26,087 nucleotides of DNA, from contig CAWAPJ010000032.1 in the NCBI GenBank assembly GCA_963783885.1, positions 1 through 26,087 of the forward strand. The letters are read 5' to 3'. Source of the DNA: Waddliaceae bacterium (GTDB lineage: Bacteria > Chlamydiota > Chlamydiia > Chlamydiales > SLFE01). Both the position numbers and the translations under genes were made by a program. This document shows, one piece after another, positions 530 through 5,981 of this stretch; within the stretch, counting starts at the first letter, position 1; each line of letters begins with the position of its first letter. The notes under the pieces were generated by a model. It did no database searches, was not told the DNA's origin, and saw nothing but the letters and a program-made list of their open reading frames with translations.

Positions 530-1693
530 ATGAAAAGAGCCCTTGCCATTTTTCTGGTGTATCTACTCGGACTCGTTCAGGGAATTGCCTTCACAACAAT
601 ACCGGCTGCAGCCAATTTTTTGACTGGAAGCCAGGGATTTCAATTCACCGACACAGAGTATGGGTCGATATTTCTTCCGATGATTTTCGGAGCTATTGTT
701 TCCTCATTTGCGGGAGGAGCTCTGGCCAAAAAGTTTACAGTCAAAAACGTCTTGCTTGCAGGAATCTTGCTAAGCGGAGCGGCGATGTTTGTTTTCTATT
801 GGGCATCTTTGCTGACCGGTGTGCGTTATTCCATCATGATGCTTGTCATGCTGCTTTTAGGGATGGGATTCGGAGCAAACATCACCTCTCTCAACCCTTT
901 CGCCATCCATTTCTTCCCCGATCACGCAAGTTCGGCGGTCACGGCTCTCCACAGCTGTCTGGGAATCGGGACTGCAATCGGCCCGCTGCTTTGGGTTCTC
1001 TTCAGCGGTTTAAATATTTGGTGGGCTGATCCCATCCTTTTGGGTACGATTTTTGCCGCCCTTTTCCTGTTAGGTTTTTTTCTCCTTCCCAAGTCAGCAG
1101 AACTCGAAGGCAAAGGAGAAGGCTCCTCTATCCCTCATAGAGCGCTGCTTGGAGTTTTCGCCTTTATCGCATTCTTGTATGGAATCATCGAAACGACCTA
1201 TGGCAATTGGTCTACCATTTATTTCCACCAGGCCAAGGGAATGTCGACTGCCAATGCCAATGCGCTGCTCTCCCTTTTCTGGGGATCGGTTACGGGAGGC
1301 AGGATCATCGCGACCTTTTTGAGTATCGCCATTGCCTCCCGCTGGATCTATCGCATTCTCCCTTTTCTCGTTTTTGGAAGTGCTATCGCTTTGATTTACA
1401 TCGCGTCTTATGATGCTGCCTTTGCTGTTATGATCCTCGCGGGACTTGGGTGCTCGGCATTTTTACCTCTTTCAGTGACTTACGGGGTGCAAAATTTAAA
1501 AACAAACCCTACTTTCGCCTCAGGCCTTGTCATCGGAACTTACATGATCGGCTATGGTGTCGCCGCCGAAGGAATCGGATTTCTTCATAAACAGGAAGGG
1601 GTTTCCTTTGACGCGCTCTTTCTAACCGTCGCCGCTATTGCTTTTGTTCTTATCGGGTTCAATTTCGGGTCGACCCTGAAGATGGATCGATAA
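530..1693 (+). CDS. Major facilitator superfamily transporter (FucP/TsgA-like)
   Basis: 387 aa with about 12 hydrophobic segments. Has an MFS loop-2/3-like motif (GGALAKKFTVKNVL) and a FucP-like GRIIA motif in the C-terminal half. Confidence 0.85.
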   Translation: MKRALAIFLVYLLGLVQGIAFTTIPAAANFLTGSQGFQFTDTEYGSIFLPMIFGAIVSSFAGGALAKKFTVKNVLLAGILLSGAAMFVFYWASLLTGVRYSIMMLVMLLLGMGFGANITSLNPFAIHFFPDHASSAVTALHSCLGIGTAIGPLLWVLFSGLNIWWADPILLGTIFAALFLLGFFLLPKSAELEGKGEGSSIPHRALLGVFAFIAFLYGIIETTYGNWSTIYFHQAKGMSTANANALLSLFWGSVTGGRIIATFLSIAIASRWIYRILPFLVFGSAIALIYIASYDAAFAVMILAGLGCSAFLPLSVTYGVQNLKTNPTFASGLVIGTYMIGYGVAAEGIGFLHKQEGVSFDALFLTVAAIAFVLIGFNFGSTLKMDR

Positions 1694-2738
1694 CAGGGAT
1701 AGGTTTAGCCCCTTTGGTATTCAGCTTAATTGCCCACAAAGAGTTTGAAGAGCAGATAAACAAGATATTATTATCTTTGCCGCCGAATGTCAGATTTGCC
1801 GTTTGCTTGGGCATCAAAAATTTCCCGATCAGCTTCCCTTCGGGATTGATGACATGAATGCCGTCGTAGGCCCCCACATAAATGTTGTCGTGCTCATCAA
1901 GCCTCATGCCGTCAGGGAATCCGGGGGACACAACAGCGAAAACCCTTTGACCCGACACTGTTTTACCGTCTTTGGCCACATTATAGGCATAAATGGCGTG
2001 ATGTTTTTTCTCATAATATGTACGGGGCGCCTGAATAGCGCCGCTGTCGATGACAAAAAGCGTTTTTTCATCTTTTGAAAAGGCAATGCCGTTGGGCATT
2101 TGCAGATCGGAAACCACGACGGTTATTTCTTCAGTTTTCGGATCATAGCGGTAGACATTATTCGGCAGGTAACACTGCTGAGGAAATTGCAGGCAGCCAT
2201 AAGAAGGATCGGTAAACCAGACCGTTCCGTCCGACTTGACGACAAGATCATTGGGCGAGTTAAGCGGCTTGCCTTCGTAAAAGCCGACTAGTGTTTTCAC
2301 TGTCCCGTCGAACTCGGTGATCGACACCCGTCTTCCTGTCGTTTCCGCTGTCAAAAGACGTCCGTTTAGGTCGGCTGTCTGACCGTCTGCAATATTCGAT
2401 GGATGGCGGTACACAACTGGTTTGTCCCAGGAAAGCGGTGTGATTTTATTATAAGGCTCAAGACCGTGCCAGCGGAGCATCAGAATATTGTCATTGATTT
2501 GATCGGTAAAAAACAGGTAGCCCTCTTCAGATCCCTTCATCTGAACATAGACAGGCCCTTCGGTAAAACCGAATCCTTCAGCAATATGGATCAATCTCGG
2601 TTCAGTTCCCAAGATTTTGGCAAAGGATTCATCATAAACTTCAAGAGGAAGCTGTGGCGATTCTTTTTCGGGATACTGCGGAGCGTTGACAATCCCCAAA
2701 ACAGCTAAAAATAAACTCAACAAACAAGTCATAGGCAC
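1659..2738 (-). CDS. SMP-30/gluconolactonase/LRE family beta-propeller hydrolase, probably exported
   Basis: Motifs FTEGPV, LNSPNDL, WFTDP, PNGIAFS, PDGMRLD and ANLTFGG. The N-terminus is hydrophobic and signal-like. The 3' end overlaps the MFS gene by 35 nt. Confidence 0.9.
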   Translation of the reverse strand: MPMTCLLSLFLAVLGIVNAPQYPEKESPQLPLEVYDESFAKILGTEPRLIHIAEGFGFTEGPVYVQMKGSEEGYLFFTDQINDNILMLRWHGLEPYNKITPLSWDKPVVYRHPSNIADGQTADLNGRLLTAETTGRRVSITEFDGTVKTLVGFYEGKPLNSPNDLVVKSDGTVWFTDPSYGCLQFPQQCYLPNNVYRYDPKTEEITVVVSDLQMPNGIAFSKDEKTLFVIDSGAIQAPRTYYEKKHHAIYAYNVAKDGKTVSGQRVFAVVSPGFPDGMRLDEHDNIYVGAYDGIHVINPEGKLIGKFLMPKQTANLTFGGKDNNILFICSSNSLWAIKLNTKGAKPIPVIDPSSGSTRN

Positions 2739-3007
2739 TGCTGCAACACAGACCGGATCGCCTCAGCCCGGCTTGTCCCCTGAAGTTTCTTTGTCGCTCC
2801 GCCTTTGTCAATGTGCCCTTCCGCCAGTTTTACCCACTTATCGCGAATTTGATCAATTAAAGCAGGGTCCAAATCGCGGCGGAAATCAAACGTTTCCTTG
2901 GCCGCCTCATAAATCGCATTGATATCTTCTTTGCCGAACTTGCCCTTCTCTTTATTTTGAATGGCCTTATCAAAAGCTTTTAGAAGTTTGTTTGCTTCCT
3001 CTGACAT
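2729..3007 (-). CDS. Small helical hypothetical protein (92 aa) within the catalase operon
   Basis: Starts 5 nt after the katA stop and overlaps the start of the gluconolactonase gene. Composition is protein-like. Confidence 0.7.
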   Translation of the reverse strand: MSEEANKLLKAFDKAIQNKEKGKFGKEDINAIYEAAKETFDFRRDLDPALIDQIRDKWVKLAEGHIDKGGATKKLQGTSRAEAIRSVLQQCL

Positions 3008-3012
3008 ATTTG

Positions 3013-4471: not shown

Positions 4472-4897
4472 CTATTTGCCCCCTTTTAACAATTCCAAAT
4501 GTTTTTGGAAAGCTCGAATCGTGTCTTCGCTGACGTGATGCTCCATCCCCTCGACATCGATTTCTGCGATATGCTTCGGAACTCCTAAAGCTATCAAATA
4601 ATCCATAAGAAACGCATGGCGCTCCTTGCTCATTTTTGCAAGCTTTGTTCCTTTAGCTGTCAGTGTTACAGGCTGATTCTGCTCCGTTTTGACCAAACCT
4701 TTCTTCCGAAGCCTCTCGACTGTCCTCACAACGGTCACATGGGAAACTCCCAAATGCTTAGCAATATCGCAGACTCTGGCTTCTCCTTTCCGCGATATAA
4801 TGTCATATATGATCTCGACATAATCCTCGGCCGTCTCGGAAACATGATGATTCCGTGTCGCGATAAATGGTTTTGCTCGTCTTAAGTTTTTTTTCAT
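4472..4897 (-). CDS. mntR: DtxR/MntR family metal-dependent transcriptional regulator (short, E. coli MntR-like)
   Basis: [30 protein letters not shown] (winged HTH), ERH and [11 protein letters not shown] metal-site motifs. No C-terminal SH3/FeoA domain. Confidence 0.9.
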
Positions 4898-5922
4898 ATT
4901 TTCTTAAATTGGTAGTCTAAGGGAAGTTTGAAAAAATATCCTTGTCTTTCCGCCAGATGCTTGTTGGCAATAGCGCATAAGCGATTATGTAATATCTTGT
5001 CATCGGTAAGTTCCGATAAATAACGCTTATAAATGTTTCTTGTCATTTTAAATTCACCCTCGTCAATCATACACCAATAATGCAGTAAAAAAGCAACTCC
5101 CAGGATTTCTATTGCATTGAAAGGCCACTCGCCCAAATGACCTGTATCGCCGAGATCTTCCCTGGCATAAAAAATCATTTCTCCTAGCCCCACTTCACCG
5201 ACGACTGAAATGGATGCTAAAACGAGCAAGATCATAGGGATCGCGACTCCCATAATCACTGAAATTAAACATCTGGAAACCCCGTCTTTTCTGATAGATT
5301 TTTGTCCATGTACCAATCGTCTGAAATACCCTCTGCAAGAAGACACCTTTTTTAAATCCTTCTCAATTCTGACAAGAATATCTTTCAGTTGATCATCTTT
5401 GCGATGAATGCCTTTCTTTTCAAGGTTTGCCTCTTCGCATACTTTCAAAACCTTAAGACGTCTGGTAACCAAGCTTTTTGAAAAAAGGCATTGATGACTG
5501 TAGGCATCAAAAAGACGAGTCAATATTCGATATATATCCTTGGGAGGTCTTGGAGAACCCTCAAGCCACTTTTGGCAAATAGGGCCCAACTTGCAATACT
5601 CCCCTTCTCGAATCAATTGAATTGTCACTGTTCCAAGGGCGATTGAAGTAAATATGACGATCGCCGTCCATCCTCCCGCATCTCCCAAAGGCCTAATTCT
5701 TTCAAAGGGATGATGATTTTCGGCCAGCTCGATTAACGAACGAACAGAGCCCTCAATACAAAAATAGGACACCCCGAGAGCATAAACTTTCATTGCCAAT
5801 AACCCTCCCGCCATCAACGAGCCGCGAAGCACTCCCTTCTGTTTAATCGAACTTAAGATCCGATTGACGAAAAAACGATCATCCGTTTTGGCATGTATTT
5901 CTCTTGCGAGATCAATTGTCAT
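4894..5922 (-). CDS. Hypothetical membrane protein with an internal tandem duplication (2 x 2 TM)
   Basis: Strong RBS AAGGAGGT at 5927-5934 and an ATGA overlap with mntR. Four hydrophobic segments. The halves resemble each other (SIKQKGVLR/SIRKDGVSR, LGDAG/LGDTG, IREGEY/IDEGEF). Confidence 0.85.
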   Translation of the reverse strand: MTIDLAREIHAKTDDRFFVNRILSSIKQKGVLRGSLMAGGLLAMKVYALGVSYFCIEGSVRSLIELAENHHPFERIRPLGDAGGWTAIVIFTSIALGTVTIQLIREGEYCKLGPICQKWLEGSPRPPKDIYRILTRLFDAYSHQCLFSKSLVTRRLKVLKVCEEANLEKKGIHRKDDQLKDILVRIEKDLKKVSSCRGYFRRLVHGQKSIRKDGVSRCLISVIMGVAIPMILLVLASISVVGEVGLGEMIFYAREDLGDTGHLGEWPFNAIEILGVAFLLHYWCMIDEGEFKMTRNIYKRYLSELTDDKILHNRLCAIANKHLAERQGYFFKLPLDYQFKKI

Positions 5923-5938
5923 TTCTACCTCCTTAGAA

Positions 5939-5981
5939 TCGTAGCTCAGGCTACGAATAGGGGAGTGTAGCCAAGGCTACA
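5939..5981. promoter_or_regulatory. Two tandem palindromic MntR-like operator boxes
   Basis: TCGTAGC-TCAG-GCTACGA (5939-5956) and TGTAGC-CAAG-GCTACA (5966-5981) lie directly upstream of the RBS of the mntR-containing operon. Both share the TAGC-N4-GCTA core of the enterobacterial MntR box. Confidence 0.75.

Follow-up and report, generated by a model that had tools for sequence, protein, structure and literature searches.

Candidate tandem MntR operators ahead of an mntR operon predicted to include a heme catalase in an environmental chlamydia

Introduction

Can a manganese sensor govern a heme catalase, and by what route? This question is raised by a gene cluster of an uncultured environmental chlamydia. 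The cluster lies in a 26,087-nucleotide stretch of DNA (contig CAWAPJ010000032.1 of the Waddliaceae bacterium assembly GCA_963783885.1), hereafter the window, and consists of five minus-strand genes arranged head to tail in the order memb-mntR-katA-p92-SGL, as read from the window's list of open reading frames (ORFs). They encode a membrane protein, a regulator of the DtxR family, a catalase, a small protein, and a gluconolactonase-like protein. The first-pass annotation of this DNA, made from the sequence alone, proposed that MntR binds two palindromes in the leader of the array and thereby links metal sensing to catalase, in what would be an unusual switch between manganese-based and heme-based peroxide defense. 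Here, we weigh this proposal using the assembly itself (G000; 2,163,190 bp in 46 contigs, 88.9% complete) and 401 genomes of the order. The palindromes stand up well as operators, and the catalase is less firmly tied to them, while memb appears to be the main conserved target of MntR, a role that the annotation had overlooked, and the most interesting lead.

Results

Two palindromes in the leader are conserved at mntR loci

The leader between the stop codon of an upstream kinase gene (6003) and the start of memb (5922) measures 80 bp and, as annotated, holds two copies of GTAGC-N4-GCTAC, namely, GTAGCCTTGGCTAC (5980-5967) and GTAGCCTGAGCTAC (5954-5941), with centers 26 bp apart. Both copies lie upstream of the AAGGAGG ribosome-binding site (RBS; 5934-5928) and occupy the last 60 bp ahead of it, the proximal box stopping 6 nt short of the RBS and 18 nt short of the ATG. 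When up to one mismatch was allowed, the motif matched twice in the window as compared to 0.15 expected matches, and two or more matches were obtained in 1 of 100 shuffles. Across the whole assembly, the leader pair represents the only two exact copies, as compared to 12 copies of the reversed control pattern. Because base composition predicts about two copies per genome, the improbable part is not their number but the presence of both copies 26 bp apart in a single leader.

We evaluated the conservation of the boxes by searching the 401 genomes for MntR (E ≤ 1e-20), which was present in 43 genomes in 44 copies. About 7 kb on each side of each mntR copy was scanned, and because two loci were cut within the upstream gene, 42 were evaluable. 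A box was counted if it matched TGTAGC-N4-GCTACA within −300 to +20 of the start of the mntR unit. At least one box with up to one mismatch was found at 28 of the 42 loci and with up to two mismatches at 33, the latter class taking in the TGTAAC-N4-GTTACA variant of more divergent regulators. Two or more boxes, spaced 16 to 31 bp apart, were present at 27 of the 42 loci, and in the orthologues, about 11 to 36 nt separate the end of the proximal box from the start codon. Elsewhere in the flanking DNA (496 kb), there were eight boxes with up to one mismatch, five of which adjoin other box-adjacent membrane genes (one at L060 and two each at L062 and L063).

The pattern of conservation bears on the nature of the element. 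In an alignment of leaders from 10 genomes, the box arms were the only invariant columns, while spacers and flanks varied and no compensatory changes were seen in the arms. Invariant arms combined with variable loops and no compensation fit a protein-binding site but not an RNA hairpin. Furthermore, in a second genome of the same genus (G001), the intergenic region extends to 420 bp and the kinase is replaced by a different upstream gene, yet both boxes are kept, again 26 bp apart. A terminator scan of 5923-6002 revealed no recognizable terminator after the kinase gene, and the hairpins precede ACUCCCC and GAUUCUAAGG, neither of which forms a U-tract. Because the boxes are kept even when the upstream gene changes and neither hairpin leads into a U-tract, the reading of the palindromes as the terminator of the kinase gene, which the annotation had named as an alternative, was rejected. 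Together, these comparisons make it very likely that the palindromes are operators through which MntR autoregulates its own operon, in agreement with the original proposal.

Next to this conservation stands the scarcity of further sites. A position weight matrix (PWM) built from 48 sites, with the consensus aaaTGTAGC-N4-GCTACAttt, ranked the distal and proximal leader boxes first and second in the own genome (scores in Table 1), while the third-best match, at 12.1 bits, was intragenic. Matches at or below this score were rejected as chance, being fewer than in shuffled genomes and with the best one intragenic. No other credible MntR target was found by PWM in the own genome, and the predicted MntR regulon in the assembly comprises only its own operon. 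Matches of at least 8 bits numbered 9 in the real genome as compared to 36 to 45 in mononucleotide shuffles, a shortage that may reflect either avoidance or only a dinucleotide effect.

The TACACT in the right arm of the distal box (5969-5964) could serve as a −10 element. Several genomes have a TTG-type hexamer 8 to 10 nt upstream of the distal box, with TACAnT in the right arm 17 to 19 nt further on. A promoter composed of these two elements would overlap the distal box.

The regulator is of the E. coli type

The regulator is of the short type, as the annotation had recognized: a 141-residue protein with PF01325 (residues 19-74) and PF02742 (residues 80-135) but no SH3-like third domain. It matched the E. 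coli-type MntR model of NCBIfam (NF008273) with 157.0 bits, which exceeds the cut-off of 153 by a narrow margin, and among solved structures, its best match is E. coli MntR (2h09; E = 7.7e-29). Alignment with 2h09 and B. subtilis MntR (1on1) placed all six manganese ligands at D25, E28, H94, E116, E119, and H120. In B. subtilis numbering, we take the binuclear manganese site to consist of D8, E11, H77, E99, E102, and H103. On all features testable by sequence, the regulator belongs to the E. coli-type MntR family. Its Mn2+-dependent binding to the operator is predicted from the likeness of the boxes to AACATAGCnnnnGCTATGTT, the enterobacterial MntR site consensus that the annotation had quoted and that is in print in Rodionov et al. 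(2006; PMC1698941).

We favor, with a probability of roughly 60%, a model in which the boxes are tandem MntR operators, Mn-loaded MntR represses the five-gene operon, and catalase rises at low manganese. According to this model, one MntR dimer would bind each 16- to 20-bp palindrome, and the promoter would either overlap the boxes or lie upstream of them. Because the boxes fill the space up to the RBS and leave no room for a promoter downstream, the geometry is that of a repressor. Mn-loaded MntR would shut the operon and manganese scarcity would derepress it, increasing the output of memb, of MntR itself, of a cytoplasmic heme catalase, of p92, and of an exported SGL. Thus, the co-transcribed heme catalase would go up when manganese goes down; we speculate that the rationale is the coincidence of manganese depletion and oxidative attack in the phagosome of a protist. 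The ancestral autoregulated unit would have been memb-mntR, behind which, in this genus, a module of higher guanine-plus-cytosine (GC) content, katA-p92-SGL, found elsewhere with a promoter-like region of its own, would have become attached. The sequences themselves show the gene packing, the uniqueness and conservation of the boxes, the family and ligands of MntR, and the fusion particular to this genus; from them we infer that MntR binds the boxes, which metal it senses, whether it represses, that katA is co-transcribed, and what memb does.

The catalase module lies outside the conserved regulon

KatA is a full-length monofunctional catalase, as judged by its matches to PF00199 (608.5 bits, covering positions 1-382 of the 383-position profile) and PF06628 (72.6 bits). 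Catalase genes were present in 50 of the 401 genomes. The window KatA is 83% identical to catalases of another family of the order, and the closest katA orthologues (83 to 73% identity, from other families) lie on a different contig from mntR. In a third genome of the genus (G002), katA-p92-SGL forms a stand-alone module (87, 76, and 87% identity, respectively), preceded by a non-coding stretch of about 150 nt in which TTGAAA-17-TAATAT occurs; a search of this genome, which is 82% complete, revealed no mntR and no memb. Moreover, none of 28 other katA loci carried a box of at least 9 bits within 1.5-kb flanks, and a comparison of the regions upstream of katA in six chlamydial genomes revealed no common regulatory motif beyond the RBS region. 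In the window, GC content is 39 to 44% over memb-mntR and then 47 to 53% over katA-p92-SGL.

Thus, the link between mntR and catalase proposed by the annotation held only in part: the genes adjoin each other in G000 and G001, but the conserved MntR unit, as far as sequence comparison goes, is memb-mntR, and the catalase is outside the conserved regulon. The simplest history would be that, in one lineage, a catalase module that had stood alone became attached behind mntR, losing its former upstream region. MntR control of the catalase by way of such a recent, genus-specific operon fusion is plausible, and we lean toward it.

The strongest rival to a shared operon, which we consider rather unlikely, is that the boxes govern memb-mntR alone, while katA-p92-SGL is transcribed mainly from its own promoter located in mntR or at its end; in that case, catalase would not be regulated by manganese. 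The stand-alone module of G002 with its own upstream region, the absence of the box from the 28 other katA loci, and the GC step at the junction, which indicates separate origins, all speak for this possibility. However, the promoter-like region of G002 was not retained in G000, where only 13 nt separate mntR from katA, and in G001, the stop codon of mntR is lost, so that a 163-residue ORF runs over the start of katA. In addition, the scan of the 3′ half of mntR on this strand yielded no promoter-like site, no terminator follows mntR, and a consensus scan detected no significant terminator or promoter signal between any of the operon genes. It is the short gap in G000, the overlapping ORF in G001, and the lack of such signals that point to the co-transcription of katA.

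Two further observations concern catalase and mntR copies. One genome (G273; L069, 7026-9979) carries two mntR paralogues, one of which faces a catalase gene in convergent orientation at a distance of about 1 kb; no box was found at that katA. Contig C46 of the own assembly ends (5199-8965) with a 98.3%-identical copy of positions 1-3767 of the window, covering the major facilitator superfamily (MFS) gene, SGL, p92, and the 3′ two thirds of katA. Within this copy, which is cut off by the end of the contig, both p92 and katA contain indels; it could be redundancy in the assembly, a variant from another strain, or a true duplication.

The membrane protein memb accompanies mntR

The memb gene lies directly upstream of mntR on the same strand at 21 of the 44 loci, and a profile of the memb family adds six further adjoining copies (L013, L048, L056, L060, L062, and L063). 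The protein has no Pfam or NCBIfam family above cut-off; a match to BrkB remained below the threshold (20.4 bits versus a cut-off of 33.7). Its four hydrophobic helices form two hairpins with a basic helical domain between them. The charge distribution places both termini and the segment 106-215, with its 26 lysines or arginines, in the cytoplasm, while the hairpin loops (GDAGGW and GHLGEW) are acidic. The AlphaFold2 model (predicted local distance difference test score, 90.6; predicted template modeling score, 0.83) shows long helical hairpins at 31-68/76-122 and 215-252/261-304 together with helical cytoplasmic parts.

The invariant residues of memb (G80, W85, G261, H262, E265, and W266) cluster at the loops. 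Divergent members carry G-H-x-x-E-W in both loops, and most members of memb and its relatives have this motif twice, in acidic outward loops. The internal repeat is seen only as these paired motifs across the family, and BLAST comparison of the N-terminal half with the C-terminal half was not significant (E = 0.27 to 31). CorA-type channels also carry their signature motif in an outward loop, which offers a loose analogy to memb.

Structure and sequence searches placed memb in no characterized family. Foldseek gave no matches in the PDB at E ≤ 0.001; in VIA-wide, only generic helical hairpins were recovered (Z up to 9.5, below the meaningful level for helical proteins), and the ESM Atlas returned one 0.77 match to a viral hypothetical cluster, which is below lead level. 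A full HMMER pass over 1.84 billion representatives retrieved 104 memb members at E ≤ 0.001, and the only homologues with names were hypothetical proteins of Parachlamydia and Protochlamydia. Compared by family profile and fold with the known manganese transporters (NRAMP, MntP, UPF0016, TerC, and ABC permeases), memb gave no match above these cut-offs. We read memb as a candidate manganese uptake or sensing protein. A role as an Inc-type inclusion-membrane protein, a group marked by a bilobed hydrophobic domain and type III secretion, is also possible; memb has two hydrophobic hairpins, but each of them has a conserved acidic loop of about 25 residues.

At most other mntR loci, a second membrane family without Pfam assignment lies beside the boxes (Table 1). 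None of the 17 box-adjacent proteins scanned had a Pfam match, while three ordinary neighbors did match. Twelve of the 17 are interlinked by phmmer, and one of these 12, at L066, also scores weakly with the memb profile. Members of the second family consist of either a single repeat (209 to 243 residues) or a double repeat (354 to 426 residues). A loop motif, FSS(N/D)...N.G, was noted by eye, although none of the proteins was picked up by a regular expression written for this motif.

We also surveyed other metal and peroxide genes. No NRAMP gene was found in the own assembly. The Fur/PerR family (PF01475) had no match in the own genome, while the control was positive in 13 of 14 genomes, and the single LysR-type gene scored below every OxyR cut-off; both results apply to an assembly that is 88.9% complete. 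Contig C29 encodes a DtxR fusion of the YtgC-YtgR type as well as two binding proteins of the ZnuA family, and the genome contains two Fe/Mn superoxide dismutase genes.

Since memb has no assigned function, it could also be an exporter, with MntR serving as a manganese-dependent activator, as for E. coli mntP and B. subtilis mneP/mneS, and with catalase going up at high manganese. MntR is indeed bifunctional in model organisms, according to PMC9993123. However, the proximal box stands so close to the RBS and the ATG, in the window as in the orthologues, that a promoter cannot fit downstream, and we regard activation as improbable. Least credible of all is that the palindromes are RNA hairpins, the kinase terminator, or sites of another factor such as the C29 fusion: each box can form a 6- to 7-bp hairpin, the leader folds at −24.3 kcal/mol (z = −1.9; 11 of 200 shuffles fold as well), and a second DtxR-family protein is encoded in the genome, but such a fold is unremarkable, there is no terminator in the scan and no U-tract after either hairpin, the arms are conserved without compensatory change around variable loops, the boxes track mntR across families whatever the upstream gene, and their core is the same as that of enterobacterial MntR sites.

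Organization of the locus and its surroundings

The five genes are tightly packed, as the annotation had described: memb and mntR overlap by 4 nt, gaps of 13 and 5 nt precede katA and p92, respectively, and p92 and SGL overlap by 10 nt, or by an ATGA if SGL starts at the ATG at 2732. Coordinates are collected in Table 1. Homologues of p92 in other Chlamydiales metagenome-assembled genomes have 92 to 93 residues and 58 to 76% identity and are all annotated as hypothetical. The N terminus of SGL is a hydrophobic, signal-like segment, and the gene is convergent with the MFS gene (530-1693), their ends overlapping.

Table 1. Features of the mntR operon and of the box-adjacent membrane families.
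Feature	Position	Strand	Description
memb	5922-4894	-	342 aa, membrane protein, Pfam-less, first gene
mntR	4897-4472	-	141 aa, DtxR family, E. coli-type MntR
katA	4458-3013	-	481 aa, monofunctional heme catalase, signal peptide absent
p92	3007-2729	-	92 aa, no Pfam/NCBIfam family, accompanies katA and SGL in the genus
SGL	2738-1659	-	359 aa, SMP-30/gluconolactonase/LRE-like, PF08450 at 133 bits, last gene of the unit
Distal candidate MntR box TGTAGCCTTGGCTACA	5966..5981	-	Perfect match to order-wide consensus; PWM 23.1 bits
Proximal candidate MntR box CGTAGCCTGAGCTACG	5940..5955	-	Exact GTAGC-N4-GCTAC core; PWM 17.6 bits
Shine-Dalgarno AAGGAGG of memb	5928..5934	-	Read from sequence
Second membrane family	L012, L029, L059, L066-L070, L072-L074, L076		Beside boxes where memb-type gene is absent

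Directly upstream of the leader lies a eukaryote-like Ser/Thr kinase gene (7181-6003, minus strand; PF00069, 72 bits). The kinase shows weak matches to effector kinases such as LegK1, and it is not found at this position in G001. Farther upstream, inspection by eye suggested a small protein with a Cys-rich, SEC-C-like end (7607-7858, minus strand), a PP-loop ATPase-like protein with an SGGKDS motif (7944-8681, plus strand), and a fragment resembling the C-terminal part of a transposase (8937-9338, minus strand).

Discussion

Several observations weigh against a manganese-repressed five-gene operon. The katA-p92-SGL module stands behind mntR only in G000 and G001, both of this genus. In G001 (L010, 4096-7006), frame changes interrupt both katA and memb, one in each gene; these changes, together with the lost stop codon of mntR, represent either sequencing or assembly errors or gene decay. 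Among the 42 evaluable mntR loci, 9 have no box with up to two mismatches near the start of the unit, and in the window, the proximal box departs from the consensus at two outer positions. That katA is co-transcribed, and where the promoter lies, are predictions from sequence. Because chlamydial promoters fit the sigma-70 consensus poorly, a consensus scan may miss an internal promoter lying in the 3′ portion of mntR. Read-through from the kinase gene could add MntR-independent transcription. Last, the assembly is incomplete (88.9%), and members of the regulon or a peroxide sensor may be missing from it.

The predicted system can be compared with several known ones. It is similar to that of enterobacterial MntR (mntH and sitABCD of E. 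coli and Salmonella) in its short two-domain DtxR protein with six aligned manganese ligands and in its 20-bp palindromic site, where A/T flanks surround a TAGC-N4-GCTA core and the spacer measures 4 bp. In contrast to the enterobacterial site, which has CA at arm positions 3 and 4, the chlamydial site has TG, and the chlamydial sites come in tandem pairs, 16 to 31 bp apart. The targets differ as well: instead of mntH, sit, and mntP, the predicted chlamydial targets are the regulator's own operon, a membrane protein without Pfam family, and, in this genus, the catalase. In Mesorhizobium sp. BNC1, a predicted MntR site is found only at mntR itself, as stated in Rodionov et al. (2006; PMC1698941). 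Similarly, the sole candidate site in the genome analyzed here lies upstream of the regulator's own unit; however, the chlamydial mntR comes second in a conserved pair of genes, memb-mntR, to which extra genes are appended.

Regarding the catalase, there is a precedent in B. subtilis, where PerR:Mn represses katA, according to PMC9993123. As with PerR:Mn, high Mn2+ would keep the heme catalase low in the chlamydia. The two cases differ in the sensor, since PerR is a Fur-family protein that senses H2O2 via iron, while the candidate sensor here is a DtxR-family MntR. To our knowledge, MntR has no peroxide response. The annotation had suggested that direct control of the catalase by MntR, rather than by OxyR or PerR, would be an unusual switch. 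Neither OxyR nor PerR was found in the assembly. As physiology, a manganese-repressed heme catalase is not new. Because low manganese leading to more heme catalase has the B. subtilis precedent, the novelty resides in the wiring and the target rather than in the principle, and the switch between manganese-based and heme-based defense is less unusual than the annotation had thought. In Deinococcus radiodurans, the DtxR-like Mn/Fe regulator DR_2539 is reported to have a negative effect on expression of the catalase katE1, as outlined in a review (PMC6300522). In contrast to the locus described here, this effect is not exerted via a shared operon, and the protein is of the longer DtxR type.

Chlamydial katA is horizontally acquired and functional, as stated in another review (PMC12282293). 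The window KatA belongs to the same enzyme family as that of Parachlamydia and is 77% identical to the catalase of a Parachlamydia-named genome carrying memb; however, in Parachlamydia and other Chlamydiales, katA is not beside mntR and has no box. The primary paper on the catalase KatA of Parachlamydia and other Chlamydiales is reportedly that of Rusconi and Greub from 2013. Among the top-ranked results of open-access text searches, we found no report that describes, for environmental chlamydiae, either MntR with its box or an operon joining mntR to katA. The string 'AAACATAGC' together with MntR had no match in open-access text, and a catalase in an mntR operon was not mentioned among the titles and abstract openings ranked highest for MntR and katA.

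Environmental chlamydiae are not genetically manipulable, and little is known about their gene regulation. The locus offers a specific regulator together with a defined operator and a predicted regulon of a single operon, all of which are testable in E. coli or in vitro. It suggests that simple operon fusion brought a laterally acquired catalase under a metal sensor where neither PerR nor OxyR was found in the genome. As a tentative conjecture, the memb family, which is restricted to chlamydiae, might be a new class of Mn2+ uptake channel or manganese sensor that forms the ancestral, and often the sole, MntR regulon in the absence of NRAMP; manganese starvation in the protist phagosome would then be a cue of hostility, to which catalase was wired in one lineage. 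The memb family provides a testable candidate for a new manganese transport or sensing protein in genomes without NRAMP.

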